From Escherichia phage TH12, in sequence record MT446390.1: a stretch of 64,000 nt of DNA, one strand, 5' to 3'. This document shows, piece by piece, positions 2,755 through 62,892 of the stretch. The notes under the pieces were generated by a model, which had not been told where the DNA came from, made no database searches, and saw only the letters and a program-made list of their open reading frames with translations. A program made the position numbers and the translations under genes. The number at the start of each line of letters is the position of its first letter. The stretch's first letter is position 1.

Positions 2755-3117
2755 ATGAAAGCATATCAAATTCTTGAAGGCACACACAAAGGCACTATTT
2801 ATTTTGAAGACGGTACTCAAGCCCGGATTATTGTCTCTAAGACTTTTAAAGAAGACGCTATTGTAGACCCGGAAATTTTCTACGGTTTGAATGCCCGTGA
2901 AATTGAAATTGAACATCAACCTAAAGTTAAAATTGAAGGTGGTCAACACCTGAACGTTAATGTTCTGCGTCGTGAAACTCTGGAAGATGCAGTTAAGCAT
3001 CCAGAAAAATATCCGCAGTTGACCATCCGTGTATCCGGTTATGCAGTTCGCTTTAACTCTCTGACTCCGGAACAGCAGCGTGACGTTATCGCTCGTACCT
3101 TTACTGAGAGTCTATAA
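2755..3117 (+). CDS. GrcA/YfiD-like autonomous glycyl-radical cofactor protein
   Basis: C-terminal [60 protein letters not shown] carries the RVSGY glycyl-radical motif and matches recalled E. coli GrcA/PFL C-terminus; segment is GC-richer than flanks. Confidence 0.85.
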
Positions 3118-3896: not shown

Positions 3897-3946
3897 TTTA
3901 CTTCTCCTCTAGTTGTGTTACTATAGACTTGTCAACTAGAGGAGAA
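3896..3946 (+). promoter_or_regulatory. T4-type early promoter within 14-bp perfect inverted repeat that includes the regB SD
   Basis: gtttac 3896-3901, tactat 3919-3924; arms ttctcctctagttg 3902-3915 / caactagaggagaa 3933-3946. Confidence 0.65.
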
Positions 3947-3952
3947 ATCAAA

Positions 3953-4411
3953 ATGACTATCAATTCGGAAGTTTTTATCCGCCGTAATAAACTCCGTCGA
4001 ATCTTTGAAACGGAGTTCCGCAAAATAAATGCCGGTATAAAAGATGCTGCAAAGTCTCTTGGACTACCAGGCTTTCATATCAAGTATTCTCAACATCTCT
4101 TAGATCGTGCCATCCAGAGAGAAATAGATGAGAATTACGTTTTTGAATTATTTCATAAAGTAAAAAATCATGTTAAAGAAGTTGCAGAATTTTTATCAAT
4201 GCCGGCACGTCCAGATGTTGATGAAGATTTTGTCGAAGGTGTCGAATATCGCCCAGGCCGTTTAGAAATAACTGATGGAAATCTTTGGTTAGGTCTTACA
4301 GTTTGTCGCGAAAATCCGGCATTCAAAATGAAGACTCTTCAATGTAGAATGGCTATTATTAACAGTAAACGACTACCAGGAAAAGCTTCTAAAGCAGTGA
4401 TTAAAATCTAG
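3953..4411 (+). CDS. regB: RegB site-specific endoribonuclease
   Basis: MTINSEVFIRRNKLRR...HLLDRAIQREIDENYVFELFHK...GVEYRPGRLEITDGNLWLG...PGKASKAVIK matches recalled T4 RegB; 152 aa; track start 3929 is TTG. Confidence 0.85.
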   Translation: MTINSEVFIRRNKLRRIFETEFRKINAGIKDAAKSLGLPGFHIKYSQHLLDRAIQREIDENYVFELFHKVKNHVKEVAEFLSMPARPDVDEDFVEGVEYRPGRLEITDGNLWLGLTVCRENPAFKMKTLQCRMAIINSKRLPGKASKAVIKI

Positions 4412-4419
4412 AGGTAAAC

Positions 4420-4962
4420 ATGAGAAAAGCACTACTCGCTGGTCTATTTGCTCTTTCGTTATCAGCACATAGCTCCGAGCATACTTTTAGTAATGTCCAA
4501 CTCGATAACTTGAATTATGCTTATCAGTTTGGGGAACAGTTTTCTAAGGACGGAAAATTTAAAACGCATGAAAATATGCATAAGAAAGGACTTGGATACA
4601 TAATGGCCGCAATACTATGGCAAGAATCATCCGCAGGTATTAATCTTAAAGATAAGAAAGGTCACCATGCGTATGGAATGTTCCAAAACTATCTACCAAC
4701 AATGAGGGCAAGAATTAACCAGCTTGGTTATAATATGACTGATGCCCAAATTAAGAAAATGCTATCTAAGCGGTCTAATTCAGCAAGATGGGCTTATATC
4801 GAATTTTCTTATTGGTTAAATATACATAACGGGGATATAAGAAAAGCTATATCCTCATATAATGCGGGATGGAAGACAAGTGCTGGAAGTAAATATGCTT
4901 CTGAAGTCCTAGAAAAGGCTAATTACCTTAAATCAAATAAACTACTGGAAATAAAAGAATGA
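4420..4962 (+). CDS. Secreted SLT-domain lytic transglycosylase-like protein
   Basis: N-terminal signal peptide MRKALLAGLFALSLSAHS; SLT motifs ILWQESS...GMFQ and YNAG. Confidence 0.75.
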   Translation: MRKALLAGLFALSLSAHSSEHTFSNVQLDNLNYAYQFGEQFSKDGKFKTHENMHKKGLGYIMAAILWQESSAGINLKDKKGHHAYGMFQNYLPTMRARINQLGYNMTDAQIKKMLSKRSNSARWAYIEFSYWLNIHNGDIRKAISSYNAGWKTSAGSKYASEVLEKANYLKSNKLLEIKE

Positions 4963-5306
4963 CCAAAATGTTGGCTTTAATAGTTAGCTTGGTTTCATTT
5001 AACGCTCTTGCTAATACTACATATACTGATGTAACGGAGTATACAAACAGAACGGCGTCTGATTATTGTGGTAAAAGTCAAGAGTGTAAAGTAGATTTTT
5101 CACAAAAATTGTTATATGCGTATAAAGACGGAGAAAAAGATGGGGCGTCTAGTAGGTTCAAGGCGTCTACTTTAATTAAAAGATACTATAAAAAATGGCA
5201 AATATTAGAATGCTCGGTGGCGGAACCTAAAGATAAGGCAGCATGCAATTCTATGGTGGACCGTCTAGTTGACTCTTATACTAGAGGACTTGTAGCAAGT
5301 GATTAA
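4959..5306 (+). CDS. Small secreted protein (signal peptide, 115 aa)
   Basis: ATGA overlap with upstream stop; N-terminus MLALIVSLVSFNALANT is signal-peptide-like. Confidence 0.6.
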   Translation: MTKMLALIVSLVSFNALANTTYTDVTEYTNRTASDYCGKSQECKVDFSQKLLYAYKDGEKDGASSRFKASTLIKRYYKKWQILECSVAEPKDKAACNSMVDRLVDSYTRGLVASD

Positions 5307-5766
5307 AAACTATATCAAGGGCGATATTGTCGCCCTGTTTTCTAAAGGTAATAATATTGCTCATGGGTGCAATTGTTTTCATACAATGGGTGCCGGTGTA
5401 GCAGGTCAATTGGCAAAGGCTTATCCAAAAATTTTAGAAGCCGATAAACTTCAAACCGAATTCGGAGACGAGACTAAACTCGGGACTTATTCGGTTTATG
5501 AAAAATATTTTAAGACCCATAAAGCTTATTGCTTTAATCTTTATACACAGTTTGAGCCGGGACCTAATTTTGAGTACTCTGCTTTAATGAATTGTATAAT
5601 AGAATTAAATGAATTCGGAAAAAATAAGATAACAAAGCCTGTAATTTATATGCCAAGAATTGGTGCAGGTATTGGTGGTGGAAACTGGGATGTCATCGAA
5701 GAGATTTTAGATACGTATTCCACTAAACTAGAAATTGTGATTGTTGATTGGGAACCATTGTTATGA
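5299..5766 (+). CDS. Macro-domain (ADP-ribose-binding/hydrolase-like) protein
   Basis: GDI...IAHGCNC...MGAGVAGQLAK and C-terminal PRIGAGIGGGNW resemble macro-domain glycine-rich loops; 155 aa. Confidence 0.65.
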   Translation: MIKNYIKGDIVALFSKGNNIAHGCNCFHTMGAGVAGQLAKAYPKILEADKLQTEFGDETKLGTYSVYEKYFKTHKAYCFNLYTQFEPGPNFEYSALMNCIIELNEFGKNKITKPVIYMPRIGAGIGGGNWDVIEEILDTYSTKLEIVIVDWEPLL

Positions 5767-6991: not shown

Positions 6992-7294
6992 ATGGCCTTA
7001 AGAGCGATAGCTGTCATGGCGATGCTGGGGTTTTTTGCAGCAACAACTCCTATCGTTGGTACTGCACATATTGACCCATATTTTGATAACTTTATGGAAT
7101 CAGGGATTAAAAACGTATATACTTTGTTTGAAATTCAAAATGTCGAGAATTCTGAAAAATTCTATAAGTATATGGCAAAGCATTACAAAAATAGCCCCTG
7201 TGATGATGCATTTGAATGTCATGAACAAGGCATAAAAACTGCCAGACAATTTGCTGAGTTCATGAAAATAAAATTAGAGCCTACATCTATCTAA
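6992..7294 (+). CDS. Hypothetical protein with hydrophobic N-terminus (100 aa)
   Basis: SD CAGGAGG upstream; N-terminus MALRAIAVMAMLGFFAATTPIVG is signal/TM-like. Confidence 0.55.
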   Translation: MALRAIAVMAMLGFFAATTPIVGTAHIDPYFDNFMESGIKNVYTLFEIQNVENSEKFYKYMAKHYKNSPCDDAFECHEQGIKTARQFAEFMKIKLEPTSI

Positions 7295-45899: not shown

Positions 45900-46268
45900 A
45901 TGAAAAAATTAATCACTTTAGCAATGGTATTTGGATTAACCGGATGTGGTGCCCATGGCTTTATCCCTAATAATGTTGGCCAATTGATTTATAACCCGAA
46001 TGTTAAACAGTACAACCAACCTAAAGTTGAAGTGGAAGACCCGGTTACTGTAGGTAATCGAATGATTCAAGCTGATGCCCATGCTCAACGTTATCGTGAT
46101 TCTGATACTGTAGCATTGTCAAAAGAACAACGCGTTAAAGAACATTGTCTACAGGCTACTGAAATCGCATTCATTCGCTATGTTGAAACAACTGGTAAAG
46201 AGCCTTCCCAGAAACAAATCGCGAATAACTACGTCCAGTGTATTGAACGTTTAAACAAATTTAATTAA
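45900..46268 (+). CDS. Lipoprotein (122 aa)
   Basis: Signal peptide MKKLITLAMVFGLTGC with lipobox LTGC; own early promoter. Confidence 0.65.
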   Translation: MKKLITLAMVFGLTGCGAHGFIPNNVGQLIYNPNVKQYNQPKVEVEDPVTVGNRMIQADAHAQRYRDSDTVALSKEQRVKEHCLQATEIAFIRYVETTGKEPSQKQIANNYVQCIERLNKFN

Positions 46269-46641: not shown

Positions 46642-46935
46642 ATGAAAAAGTTATCATTGGCAGCAATCTTACTCGCAGTATCATGTGCACCAGCTCCAGT
46701 TACAGCAGGTTATGATAAAGACCTCTGTGAGTGGTCAATGACTGCAAATCAAGAAGATGTTGAACAACAAATCTTCTCTGATATCGTGAACATCACTAAA
46801 CGAGACCGTCCTAATATGGTTAATAAAGTTGTTGAACAACTTAAGTCTGGCGGTATCATGCAGTACAACTATGTTTTGTATTGTGACCCTAATTTCGATA
46901 ACAAAGATATCGTAACCGAAATCACAGGTGAGTAA
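46642..46935 (+). CDS. sp: Spackle-like periplasmic superinfection-exclusion protein
   Basis: Signal peptide MKKLSLAAILLAVSCAPAPVTA then GYDKDLCEWSMTA...SGGIMQYNYVLYCD, as recalled for T4 Sp (61.3); 97 aa. Confidence 0.7.
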   Translation: MKKLSLAAILLAVSCAPAPVTAGYDKDLCEWSMTANQEDVEQQIFSDIVNITKRDRPNMVNKVVEQLKSGGIMQYNYVLYCDPNFDNKDIVTEITGE

Positions 46936-59912: not shown

Positions 59913-61733
59913 ATGATTAAAAATGAAATTAAGGTATTGTCAGATGTAGAACATATTAAGAAACGTAGTGGTATGTATATTGGTTCTTCTGCTAAAGAAG
60001 CCCACGAGCGTTTTTTGTTTGGTAAATATCAACAAGTTGAATATGTTCCAGGTCTGGTTAAATTAATCGATGAGATTATTGACAACTCGGTTGATGAAGC
60101 TATTCGTACATCATTTAAGTTTGCAAATAAAATTGATGTGCAAATTAAAAATAATCAAGTTTCGGTGGAAGATAATGGACGTGGTATTCCTCAAGGTTTA
60201 GTTACCGACCAAACAGGTGAACAAATTCCTGGGCCTGTAGCAGCCTGGACTATTCCAAAGGCCGGTGGTAACTTTGGCGATGACTCTGAACGCAAGACTG
60301 GTGGTATGAACGGCGTCGGGAGTAGTTTAACTAATATCTTCTCTACGTTGTTTACAGGCATTACGTCAGATGGCGAAAATGAAATCACTGTTAACTGTTC
60401 AAACGGAATGGAAAACAAATCATGGTCTTCTAAGAAATCTAAAGGTAAAGGCACTAAAGTAATCTTCACTCCTGATTTCACTTCATTTGAAGAGCATAAT
60501 TTATCTCAAATTTATTTAGATATTACTTTAGACCGACTTCAAACATTGGCAGTCGTTTATCCTGATATCAAGTTCACATTTAATGGTAAAAAGGTTGATG
60601 GTAATTTTAAACGATTTGCTAAACAATTTGGTGAAGATAACATCATTCAAGAAAATGATAAAGTCTCTATAGCATTCACAACATCACCAGATGGCTTCCG
60701 TCATTTAACTTATGTGAATAACATCCATACTAAAAACGGCGGTCATCATGTTGAATGTGTAATGGATGATATCTGTGAACATCTTTTGCCTGGTATTAAA
60801 AAGAAATATAAGGGTATTGAAGTCACTAAAGCTCGTGTTAAAGAATGTCTCACAATGTTGATGTTTATTAGAGACATGAGCAACATGCGTTTTGATTCTC
60901 AGACTAAAGAACGTTTAACGTCAACGTATGGTGATATTCGTAATCATATCCAATTAGATGCTAAGAAAATTGCTCAGGCACTTCTTAAAAATGAAGCCTT
61001 GATTATGCCTATTGTTGAAGCAGCATTAGCTCGTAAATTGGCGGCAGAAAAGGCTGCAGAAACTAAAGCGGCTAAAAAGGCAACTAAAGCTAAGGTTCAT
61101 AAGCATATTAAAGCTAACCAATGTGGTAAAGATGCAGATACGACATTGTTCTTAACAGAAGGTGATTCGGCAATTGGTTATCTCATTGATGTTCGTGACC
61201 GTGAACTACATGGTGGATTCCCATTACGTGGTAAGGTGATGAATAGCTGGGGTATGTCATATGCTGATATGATGAAGAACAAAGAGCTCTTTGATATCTG
61301 TGCTATCACAGGTCTTATTCTTGGTGAAAAGGCAGAGAATACGAACTATCGTAATATTGCAATTATGACTGATGCCGATCATGACGGCCTTGGAAGTATT
61401 TATCCGGCTTTGCTTGCTTTCTTTAGTAATTGGCCTGAATTGTTTGAACAAGGACGTATTCGCTTTGTTAAAACGCCTGTAATTATTGCACAAATTGGCA
61501 AAACTCAAAAATGGTTTTATACTGTAGCTGAGTATGAAGAAGTTAAAGATACACTGCCTAAGCATAGTATTCGATACATCAAGGGATTGGGCTCACTTCA
61601 GCGGGATGAATATAAAGAAATGATTCAAAACCCTGTGTACGACGTAGTTAAACTTCCTGAAAATTGGAAAGAACTATTTGAAATGCTCATGGGTAACGAC
61701 CCTGAACTCCGTAAAGATTGGATGCTTGGTTAA
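59913..61733 (+). CDS. 39: Topoisomerase II ATPase subunit, uninterrupted gp39/gp60 fusion form
   Basis: 606 aa; GHKL ATPase IDNSVDE...EDNGRGIP...GGMNGVGSS and TOPRIM-like TEGDSA...DADHDG in one ORF. Confidence 0.9.
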   Translation: MIKNEIKVLSDVEHIKKRSGMYIGSSAKEAHERFLFGKYQQVEYVPGLVKLIDEIIDNSVDEAIRTSFKFANKIDVQIKNNQVSVEDNGRGIPQGLVTDQTGEQIPGPVAAWTIPKAGGNFGDDSERKTGGMNGVGSSLTNIFSTLFTGITSDGENEITVNCSNGMENKSWSSKKSKGKGTKVIFTPDFTSFEEHNLSQIYLDITLDRLQTLAVVYPDIKFTFNGKKVDGNFKRFAKQFGEDNIIQENDKVSIAFTTSPDGFRHLTYVNNIHTKNGGHHVECVMDDICEHLLPGIKKKYKGIEVTKARVKECLTMLMFIRDMSNMRFDSQTKERLTSTYGDIRNHIQLDAKKIAQALLKNEALIMPIVEAALARKLAAEKAAETKAAKKATKAKVHKHIKANQCGKDADTTLFLTEGDSAIGYLIDVRDRELHGGFPLRGKVMNSWGMSYADMMKNKELFDICAITGLILGEKAENTNYRNIAIMTDADHDGLGSIYPALLAFFSNWPELFEQGRIRFVKTPVIIAQIGKTQKWFYTVAEYEEVKDTLPKHSIRYIKGLGSLQRDEYKEMIQNPVYDVVKLPENWKELFEMLMGNDPELRKDWMLG

Positions 61734-61747
61734 TTGATAGATGTCCT

Positions 61748-61775
61748 AAGCTCCTTCGGGAGCTTCATTTTAATT
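61748..61775 (+). terminator. Hairpin terminator candidate
   Basis: aagctcc-ttcg-ggagctt then cattttaatttt. Confidence 0.55.
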
Positions 61776-61791
61776 TTAATAAGGCTTAATT

Positions 61792-62892
61792 ATGAAAGTT
61801 ATGTTTATCCCATCTCGCGCAGTCCCATTTAACCCAGAACGTGTACAAGGTGGTCTTGAAGCAGTACATTTAAATGTGTTGAAATATCTTGTGTCCATCG
61901 GTGCTGATATTGATTATATCGGCTTTGATAATGACACATTTGGTGATTGGAAGGTTAATCATCATCCTGTTGGTCATCTGACTAAATTCAGTCTAGGTAT
62001 GAGTTATACTATGGCTCGTAAGATTGTTGAACTAGCCGGCATCCATGAATACGATTTCGTTGTTACTATGGAACCGACTAAACTAACCGTTCAGGCAATT
62101 AAAGACGCAGGTCTCTCTAAAGTTCATAAGAATTTTATGGCAACACCATTTGAACCGGTATCTCGTGGCATTGTTCAAATTTGGGACCAGACTATTCAAA
62201 TTCATAAGAACGGTGGTAAGAGTTATGCTCCTACTAAAGCCTTCCGTGAATTTGAACGTAAATATTGTTATATGACTTCAGGTCTGACTGACAAAATTGA
62301 TTATGATTATTGGCGAGCAAATCCGTTGTTTGAAGCCGAAGATTATCCGGTTATTTGTTTGAATGAGAAACCTGAAGTTCTTCCGGCGACTGATCTGATT
62401 ATTAGTGCACAACGTTATGACACTAAAATGCGTCGTACTGATGTTGCTCTTGAAGCGATTAAAGCACTAGGCGAAAATGGTGCAGGATACTGTCCTAGTA
62501 AATGGGCACCACCGGCTAAGTATCCTGTTATTATTGATGCTCCACACAGTGAAATCATGGAACGTCTTAAAACAGCTAAAGCACTTATTAATACGTGTCC
62601 TGACACAGGTACGGTAGAGAATAGTTCTATTGAAGCCATCTCTAAAGGTGTCCCTGTAATCCAGTTAGTTTTTAAGGATTATCCTCATGCGACATTTGAA
62701 TATGACCCAGATACTGTGCGTGTAGAAATTGATTCCTCTACTCCTAAGAAAGAAGTAGTTGCGCTTTACACAAAAGCTGTATTAGAATTCACTGACACAT
62801 ACGAAGCTCGAGTTAAACGCGCTGAAGCAGTGTGGAAGAAGTATAATCGAGATGCAGTTGTTGCGATGTGGGATAAAATCTTCACAGCGTAA
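61792..62892 (+). CDS. Candidate GT-B-fold glycosyltransferase (possible DNA glycosyltransferase)
   Basis: 366 aa; C-terminal TGTVENSSIEAISKGVPVIQ resembles GT-B nucleotide-sugar-binding E-x7-E region; fold not verified. Confidence 0.6.
   Translation: MKVMFIPSRAVPFNPERVQGGLEAVHLNVLKYLVSIGADIDYIGFDNDTFGDWKVNHHPVGHLTKFSLGMSYTMARKIVELAGIHEYDFVVTMEPTKLTVQAIKDAGLSKVHKNFMATPFEPVSRGIVQIWDQTIQIHKNGGKSYAPTKAFREFERKYCYMTSGLTDKIDYDYWRANPLFEAEDYPVICLNEKPEVLPATDLIISAQRYDTKMRRTDVALEAIKALGENGAGYCPSKWAPPAKYPVIIDAPHSEIMERLKTAKALINTCPDTGTVENSSIEAISKGVPVIQLVFKDYPHATFEYDPDTVRVEIDSSTPKKEVVALYTKAVLEFTDTYEARVKRAEAVWKKYNRDAVVAMWDKIFTA

Follow-up and report, generated by a model that had tools for sequence, protein, structure and literature searches.

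In the 64,000-nt stretch of Escherichia phage TH12 DNA analyzed here (sequence record MT446390.1; this whole stretch is termed the window below), two overlapping open reading frames (ORFs) encode orthologues of the phage T4 proteins Vs.1 and Vs, both of which bear predicted export signals. By its motifs and modeled fold, Vs.1 is very probably an exported murein-cleaving enzyme of the SLT/GH23 type. Vs is annotated as a modifier of the host's cytoplasmic valyl-tRNA synthetase (ValRS), a label with which a periplasmic partnership between the two proteins, plausible as it is, conflicts. The explanation that best accounts for the data as a whole, and to which we assign about an even chance, is that an exported Vs.1 transglycosylase and an exported Vs act together in the cell envelope.

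The 1.9 kb spanning the pair share 99.3% DNA identity with Shigella phage Shf125875 (Mosigvirus, RB69-like) and match 656 T-even-type phage records. The gene order annotated in Shf125875, regB–vs.1–vs–tk.4–…–tk–rI, recurs in T4 from regB through tk (NC_000866; vs.1 at 61726–62271, NP_049725, P13311; vs at 61386–61733, NP_049724, P13310), with protein identities to the window copies of 82% for Vs.1 and 64% for Vs. The two genes overlap in both phages, by 8 nt in T4 and 4 nt in the window, and signal-peptide-like N-termini and four Vs cysteines are common to both; what differs reflects only Mosigvirus–Tequatrovirus divergence, and differences in small ORFs of the tk.1/tk.3 type are irrelevant to the pair. 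Identity and synteny thus equate the ORF pair with T4 vs.1/vs, an assignment that is near certain, and the window is that of an RB69-like Mosigvirus. As tblastn retrieved the 180-amino-acid (aa) protein from 2,060 phage records and the 115-aa protein from 795, both ORFs are real genes rather than chance reading frames. The former falls into PHROG 600 (E 3.7e-67, ‘unknown function’), the latter into PHROG 1256 (‘valyl tRNA synthetase modifier’, E 1.2e-34), with the Pfam family PF26829 (ValRS_modifier) precomputed on its homologues.

The gene pair is hence already known: both are named T4 genes, and that vs.1 resembles SLT has been published (Nolan et al. 2006, for six T4-like phages, citing the 2003 T4 genome review) and is noted in many GenBank records, several of which use the label ‘transglycosylase SLT domain-containing protein’. 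An earlier note on this DNA, made from its letters alone, had correctly delimited both ORFs and the ATGA they share. It missed that these are named T4 genes and that the smaller protein is annotated as a cytoplasmic ValRS modifier, an assignment in direct competition with the note's idea that this protein modulates the enzyme.

Family-1 lytic transglycosylases are recognized by the motif set E-S, G-L/M-x-Q and A/S-Y-N-x-G, reportedly defined by Blackburn and Clarke in 2001. This catalytic set is complete in Vs.1, where it reads W-Q-E69-S70-S71, G86-M-F-Q89 and S146-Y147-N148-A149-G150. Among 31 aligned homologues, which stem from Enterobacterales, Pseudomonas, Acinetobacter and Aeromonas phages (40–83% identity), E69, S71, G86, Q89, N90, Y147, N148 and G150 are invariant, bearing out the ES…GMFQ and YNAG motifs that the earlier note had read from the sequence. 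A second glutamate, E128 (window positions 4801–4803, within A-Y-I-E-F/L-S-Y-W), is likewise invariant in all 31 homologues and lies outside the canonical SLT motifs.

Every one of the 31 homologues matched Pfam SLT at E<0.1 (best value 1.3e-7), and PF01464 is precomputed on many of them. Modeled with AlphaFold2 on the basis of these aligned sequences (predicted local distance difference test, pLDDT, 88.6; residues 1–20 of low pLDDT and outside the fold), Vs.1 shows a lysozyme-like, all-helical GH23 fold. Fold searches with this model returned MltF (12.4), Pseudomonas aeruginosa Slt (12.1), a GH23 chitinase (12.0), Slt70 (11.4), MltC (11.3), g-type lysozyme (11.1), EtgA (10.3) and MltE (10.2), and Foldseek recovered the same families with weaker E-values. 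The SLT/GH23 assignment is thus supported by the matches of all homologues together with the agreement of the fold search. Direct sequence searches of the PDB with Vs.1 and Vs yielded nothing significant, a vs.1 profile run against the PDB gave only a chance metacaspase match and goose lysozyme at E ~1, and neither protein matched NCBIfam or PADLOC (anti-phage defence and counter-defence) profiles at E up to 0.1.

Within the GH23 fold, the stretch separating E69 from G86 has no acidic position that is conserved among the 31 homologues, which favors transglycosylase over g-type-lysozyme chemistry; a g-type lysozyme hydrolase was rejected on this ground, the second acidic residue after E69 not being conserved. 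With the bacterial family-1 enzymes (Escherichia coli Slt70, MltC and MltE; P. aeruginosa MltF and Slt; EtgA), Vs.1 has the motifs and a predicted periplasmic location in common, at only ~15–18% identity. It differs from them in consisting of a single mature domain of ~160 aa devoid of superhelical, LysM or lipoprotein modules, and carries, outside the Pfam SLT domain, an additional helix and hairpin at its N-terminus (residues 20–58). SLT domains are also known from virions and envelope-spanning machines acting locally at entry or assembly (T7 gp16, phiKZ gp144, phi6 P5 and EtgA). Unlike these, Vs.1 would be a free, Sec-exported protein of the infected cell in the early to middle phase, and a virion or entry enzyme was rejected because the gene is early and non-structural.

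Both proteins are predicted to be Sec-exported. Vs.1 begins MRKALLAGLFALSLSA↓HSSEH and Vs MTKMLALIVSLVSFNALA↓NTTY (arrows, predicted cleavage), each with a K/R-containing n-region, an uncharged hydrophobic core of 13–15 residues and a small-x-small site; in Vs.1, the h-region spans ~13 residues (A4–A16) ahead of an LSA/AHS cleavage-type site. These calls stem from a crude rule-based test applied to ORFs of at least 60 aa, which flagged 12 of the 210 window ORFs. The products of vs.1 and vs stand next to each other among the 12, the others including an rI homologue and two lipobox-like ORFs. The signal peptides that the earlier note had assigned to both ORFs were thereby recovered as predictions, and their pattern is conserved among homologues: it is kept in 31 of 31 Vs.1 relatives despite variable sequence, and found in every full-length member of the Vs family (~45 divergent members), with Ala18 at the –1 position invariant in the Vs alignment. 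Taken together, it is quite probable that Vs.1 leaves the cytoplasm by Sec and is an enzyme of the GH23 family-1 lytic-transglycosylase type, and that Vs is exported as well.

SAR (signal-anchor-release) endolysins carry a weakly hydrophobic N-terminal transmembrane domain of ~16–20 or more residues that lacks a signal-peptidase site. Cores of 13–15 residues are too short for transmembrane or SAR anchors, and a SAR endolysin was accordingly rejected for Vs.1, given its short h-region and the cleavage-type site.

Some Vs relatives have another type of predicted signal or have theirs hidden by annotation. In P0165, a distant member, a lipoprotein signal, MKKLFVLLIVFALSG↓C (lipobox FALSG↓C), takes the place of the signal-peptidase-I site. 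In Acinetobacter phage ZZ1, Morganella phage MP1 and Salmonella phage S16, the Vs-like genes (L008 1950–2279, L010 2010–2309 and L020 1301–1621, respectively) were called with starts too far downstream, which conceals the signal peptides; an upstream in-frame ATG restores MKLINIIAVFCMIISMPVYA↓QN (ZZ1), MRLLALLFVPFLCFA↓NP (MP1) and MQKIALVLSLLLISGANA↓SG (S16). Naming is affected, too: many records call vs.1 an ‘endoribonuclease’ or ‘site-specific RNA endonuclease’, a designation carried over from regB, and many name Vs ‘valyl-tRNA synthetase’, i.e. the enzyme itself.

Vs belongs to a very small family confined to phages: when 1.84 billion representative proteins were searched exhaustively with its profile, only 8 clusters emerged, with no bacterial relatives among them to hint at function. 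A word-indexed homologue search with Vs alone had returned 4 proteins, and an alignment-based search was used for the wider set. By tblastn, two sequence types could be distinguished, the type found in the window in 795 phage records and a divergent type in 407. Cysteines C85 and C96 are invariant and C37 and C43 nearly so, and a C-terminal C-x-S-M-V-D-R-L-V-D-S-Y-x-R-G-L is almost invariant within the window type. The AlphaFold2 model of Vs (pLDDT 86.8) is a four-helix bundle (helices 20–37, 41–64, 69–85 and 90–114), from whose confident fold residues 1–19 (pLDDT ~50) are excluded. The cysteine pairs flank the turn between helices 1 and 2 and that between helices 3 and 4, in the geometry expected of two hairpin-stapling disulfides, from which we infer C37–C43 and C85–C96 bonds.

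Natural variants trim this architecture. In the Vs of Dhakavirus ecom005 (L006 1393–1650), a deletion takes exactly the first cysteine pair and helix 2 while the signal peptide, second pair and C-terminal motif are kept; in Edwardsiella phage PEi20 (P0161), only a 54-aa C-terminal fragment is present.

The linkage of the two genes was assessed at 16 Vs-bearing loci: those of the window, T4, T2, a Gaprivervirus, a Winklervirus, a Kanagawavirus, a Klebsiella phage, a Dhakavirus, a Jiaodavirus, Morganella phage MP1, Acinetobacter phage ZZ1, a metagenomic contig, Shewanella phage Thanatos-2, Proteus phage phiP4-3, a Krischvirus and Salmonella phage S16. At all 16, vs lies directly 3′ of a clear vs.1 homologue, with junctions of –8 to +7 nt once starts are corrected. 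In ZZ1 the pair is intact though its flanks differ (a Seg-like endonuclease gene upstream and no macro-domain gene downstream), and Acinetobacter phages contribute 69 records for each of vs.1 and vs. In the window, vs is preceded by only a weak purine-rich stretch as Shine–Dalgarno sequence; combined with the ATGA overlap, this makes it likely that vs translation depends on ribosomes terminating on vs.1, i.e. that the two genes are translationally coupled.

At some loci the pair is followed by one further exported protein. A Jiaodavirus, Acinetobacter phage ZZ1 and a metagenomic T4-like contig encode it directly after the Vs-like gene, giving three consecutive secreted proteins (L013 2309–2701, KPN6_212; L008 2276–2707, ZZ1p0139; L016 3324–3743; probably also L020 1618–2019). 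Its length is ~130–143 aa, G-T-K and C-G form a conserved pattern in it, and its signal peptide ends in …A, followed by WE(K/Q)L. No gene of this kind is present in the window.

When and how strongly the pair matters to the phage can be gauged from T4. In line with the early-region expression proposed in the earlier note, vs.1 sits in the prereplicative regB–tk block, and time-resolved omics group T4 vs with vs.1, each having early RNA and middle-phase protein, and both proteins were detected (PMC9697503). The pair is also distinct from the canonical lysis cassette, as the note had held. Taking that cassette as endolysin e, holin t, antiholins rI/rIII and spanins pseT.3/pseT.2, e (fragment, 62–406) and rI (6992–7294) are found elsewhere in the window. 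In T4, vs and vs.1 were classified as non-essential by HIDEN-SEQ, their TA sites being saturated to 0.94 and 0.88, respectively (bioRxiv 10.1101/2025.11.20.689424). Superinfection exclusion, to which the note had also linked the enzyme, drew no support from any part of our analysis.

A late role for Vs.1, as an auxiliary enzyme backing up or accelerating endolysin E rather than remodeling the envelope early, would be in keeping with a muralytic fold whose own export signal makes it independent of the holin, with the position of the region near rI and e, and with the ‘some role in cell lysis’ suggested for vs.1 by Nolan et al. Yet T4 makes the RNA early and the protein in the middle phase, long before lysis (PMC9697503). 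Moreover, e, t and the spanin genes pseT.2 and pseT.3 were almost devoid of insertions in the very data in which vs.1 proved non-essential, and premature lysis would be the expected outcome if a lysin were exported constitutively with nothing to inhibit it. We therefore regard such a late function as highly improbable.

Non-essential as the genes are, insertions in either of them lower T4 fitness to a similar degree (all values from bioRxiv 10.1101/2025.11.20.689424). In liquid LB competition, insertions in vs and vs.1 averaged 26.6 and 22.6 reads, roughly ten-fold below neighboring non-essential genes (regB 178.6, tk.4 289.6 and vs.3 652). In M9-glucose, vs was the most depleted of all T4 genes (log2 fold change –2.19) and vs.1 reached –0.87 (p 0.0055, adjusted p 0.155). 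In M9, a vs deletion was confirmed to have a plaque defect; what the ValRS modification does biologically is unknown according to the authors. The shared phenotype of vs and vs.1 fits a common function. In the same comparison of M9 with LB, regB insertions were enriched in M9 (log2 fold change +1.17, p 0.049; Extended Data Table 6, sheet S8), whereas those in vs and vs.1 went the other way; depletion was seen for a-gt and b-gt, and enrichment for dda, nrdA/B and td.

These data also bear on the possibility that the genes form an enzyme–antidote pair, in which Vs would be a periplasmic inhibitor restraining Vs.1 until lysis, comparable to Spackle with the gp5 lysozyme, to Ivy or to PliG. T4 Spackle (sp/61.3) is a small, early, helical signal-peptide protein that resides in the periplasm and inhibits the gp5 lysozyme domain. 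It sets a precedent for a periplasmic helical T4 protein partnering a muralytic domain, and the predicted export of both proteins, the roughly fixed stoichiometry afforded by coupling, the cost of losing vs, and the small, helical, disulfide-containing and periplasmic character predicted for Vs would all suit a role of this kind. However, Spackle has no detectable sequence or fold relation to Vs, targets the virion enzyme of a superinfecting phage and is not encoded beside its target; no sequence or fold similarity to any of Spackle, Ivy, MliC/PliC and PliG was detected. An antidote would also leave vs.1 insertions, polar or not, neutral, yet they are depleted as are those in vs; the first cysteine loop is variable and dispensable in a natural variant; and many phages carry vs.1-like genes and no Vs. 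Since vs.1 insertions are not neutral in T4, Vs as a mere antidote to a toxic Vs.1 is disfavored, a pure toxin–antidote pair was rejected, and we consider an inhibitory Vs improbable overall. Of the modulator role that the earlier note had proposed for the 115-aa protein, the invariant adjacency and the export features conserved in distant phages speak for a functional tie, whereas its simple inhibitor version fits the T4 transposon data poorly.

Several observations weigh against an exported Vs.1 transglycosylase acting together with Vs in the envelope. Against Pfam SLT (PF01464), Vs.1 of the window itself scored 18.8 bits (E 0.0013), below the gathering score of 21.3, so that the SLT match expected by the earlier note held across the homologues and fell short of the threshold for the window copy. 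Genes resembling vs.1 are far more widespread than vs, with 2,060 records. No Vs-like gene follows the vs.1-like gene in Aeromonas phage Aes508, a Pseudotevenvirus or the Ackermannviridae phage PhiSH19, and enzymes resembling Vs.1 are encoded in the absence of Vs by Aeromonas, Vibrio, Pseudotevenvirus, Ackermannviridae and Felixounavirus phages. Considered with the 16 paired loci, this means that Vs always accompanies Vs.1, and that Vs.1 is independent of Vs. The weaker vs.1 defect in T4 could equally be polarity on the coupled vs gene, and genetic interactions have reportedly been found between vs and host valS(ts). The accepted function of vs, resting on classical genetic and biochemical work with T4 (Muller and Marchin 1975/1977, cited in PMC8076793), is that of a ~10-kDa factor which binds and modifies cytoplasmic ValRS. 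An M9-specific defect is what would be expected of an aid to aminoacylation when amino acids must be synthesized, and the classical view thus keeps substantial weight.

On that classical view, Vs would be the cytoplasmic tau factor acting on host ValRS, its N-terminus being unused or inefficient for export or serving as a membrane tether, with Vs.1 unrelated and the adjacency of the genes a result of operon packing. The PHROG and database annotations say as much, as does the classical work cited in PMC8076793. That minimal medium depletes vs insertions more than those in any other T4 gene would suit a role in translation or amino-acid supply, overlaps of stop and start codons are the rule among the densely packed early genes of T4-type phages, and Vs.1-like enzymes exist that have no Vs. 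The ValRS-binding T4 factor is described as a protein of roughly 10 kDa, near the predicted masses of Vs (11.0 kDa mature, 12.9 kDa precursor). The mature form is no worse a match to that factor than the precursor, and mass does not discriminate between the models.

Set against this are the cleavable-type signal peptide in all ~45 divergent Vs members, one of them with a lipobox, two conserved cysteine pairs typical of proteins from oxidizing compartments, and the finding that Vs never parts from vs.1 at the 16 loci, even where the flanks have changed. In the accessible literature, we further encountered no evidence that the assignment of this ORF to tau had been verified by protein or mutant sequencing. 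A ValRS function needs a cytoplasmic protein and the Vs family looks exported; label and sequence are thus in conflict, the cytoplasmic location that the label implies being contradicted by predicted signal peptides, the lipobox variant and the two cysteine pairs. T4 Vs bearing an N-terminal His tag formed inclusion bodies in the E. coli cytoplasm (PMC8076793), an insolubility that is unsurprising, as an exported disulfide protein would be expected to behave in this way. All told, a purely cytoplasmic Vs strikes us as a serious contender that is nonetheless doubtful.

In the envelope explanation that we prefer, Vs.1 would be made from the early transcript and exported by Sec, losing a signal peptide of ~16–18 residues to become a soluble periplasmic protein of ~18.7 kDa with GH23/family-1 lytic-transglycosylase fold and Glu69 as its single catalytic acid. 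It would cut the bonds between N-acetylmuramic acid (MurNAc) and N-acetylglucosamine in host peptidoglycan, leaving 1,6-anhydro-MurNAc ends. Ribosomes terminating on vs.1 would translate vs from the ATGA, and Vs would in turn cross into the periplasm and mature to a four-helix bundle of 11 kDa, held by the C37–C43 and C85–C96 disulfides. In the envelope, it may serve as an accessory or regulatory subunit alongside Vs.1, and not act solely on cytoplasmic ValRS. Together, the two would remodel the sacculus of the infected cell and add to the yield of phage, an effect that would be clearest where hosts grow slowly on minimal medium.

Confidence differs among the parts of this explanation. What it says of Vs.1 is well supported, and what it says of Vs and of the pair is inferred. 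That Vs works with Vs.1 in the cell envelope is a tentative proposal, falling somewhat short of an even chance. Its furthest-reaching form is on the unlikely side: here, Vs would really be a periplasmic partner dedicated to Vs.1 (lipid-anchored in some phages), the two genes constituting an envelope-remodeling module that extends from T-even to Acinetobacter and Shewanella phages and is important for yield in nutrient-poor hosts, and the link to ValRS would stem from assignment to the wrong ORF, from a small share of Vs in the cytoplasm or from a complex formed once cells were broken.

Table: Position of vs.1, vs and adjoining features in the window
Feature	Position	Strand	Details
regB (T4-type sequence-specific endoribonuclease), directly 5′ of vs.1	3929..4411	+	Pfam REGB_T4, E 4.9e-69; phrog_1323; annotated in Shf125875
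Shine–Dalgarno-like AGAGG, 5 nt before the vs.1 ATG	4410..4414	+	Sequence; overlaps the regB stop TAG (4409–4411)
vs.1 orthologue, predicted exported family-1 (GH23/SLT) lytic transglycosylase precursor	4420..4962	+	180 aa
Predicted Sec signal peptide of Vs.1	4420..4473	+	Rule-based; residues 1–16 or 1–18, cleavage after LSA or AHS
Glu69 codon (GAA), predicted catalytic acid in W-Q-E-S-S	4624..4626	+	Invariant in alignment; C-terminal end of model helix 59–70
ATGA overlap of vs.1 and vs	4959..4962	+	Sequence; vs start 4959–4961, vs.1 stop 4960–4962
vs orthologue (‘valyl-tRNA synthetase modifier’), predicted exported four-helix-bundle precursor with two Cys pairs	4959..5306	+	115 aa
Predicted Sec signal peptide of Vs	4959..5012	+	Rule-based; residues 1–18, cleavage after A-L-A
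tk.4 orthologue, macro-domain protein; first 8 nt shared with the end of vs	5299..5766	+	Pfam Macro, E 1.3e-6; phrog_335; context, outside the pair
Terminator-like hairpin AGGGCGAT-ATT-GTCGCCCT, then GTTTTCT	5318..5346	+	Consensus scan

Downstream of the pair, a strong, terminator-like hairpin with a T-tract starts 12 nt past the vs stop, within the first codons of tk.4, where the same nucleotides also encode the conserved peptide KGDIVAL. It is kept in T4, T2, VR20, CBH8 and a Dhakavirus, absent in a Kanagawavirus and a Klebsiella phage, and its counterpart in phage NBG1 is annotated as a terminator. The hairpin may end or attenuate the regB–vs.1–vs transcript ahead of tk.4. A scan for sigma-70 promoters performed no better than chance (10 found vs. 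12.8 expected in shuffled sequence). The T4 counterpart of tk.4 is reported as AdfM, an anti-DarTG2 counter-defence factor (bioRxiv 10.1101/2025.11.20.689424).

Elsewhere in the early block, a vs.6 orthologue (2755–3117, plus strand) carries, in the phage most closely related to this one, the annotation of an autonomous glycyl-radical cofactor (GrcA-like). The homologue of the lysis-inhibition antiholin rI (plus strand), among the ORFs flagged in the rule-based export test, has a hydrophobic, signal-like N-terminus. Two further plus-strand ORFs, at 45900–46268 and 46642–46935, begin with the lipoprotein-type N-termini MKKLITLAMVFGLTG↓C and MKKLSLAAILLAVS↓C, respectively, and may encode envelope or spanin-like proteins.

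What lends the pair its remaining interest is a 50-year-old cytoplasmic ValRS label on a family with a universal export signal and paired cysteines, a clash that, as far as our literature search went, appears to be unreported. It bears on an unexplained result from 2025, namely that no T4 gene is needed more than vs in minimal medium, vs.1 showing a defect of the same kind that is weaker. If the envelope explanation is true, a textbook annotation would be corrected and a new phage envelope module defined; if the classical role is true, Vs would show how a protein bearing a signal peptide reaches a cytoplasmic target.

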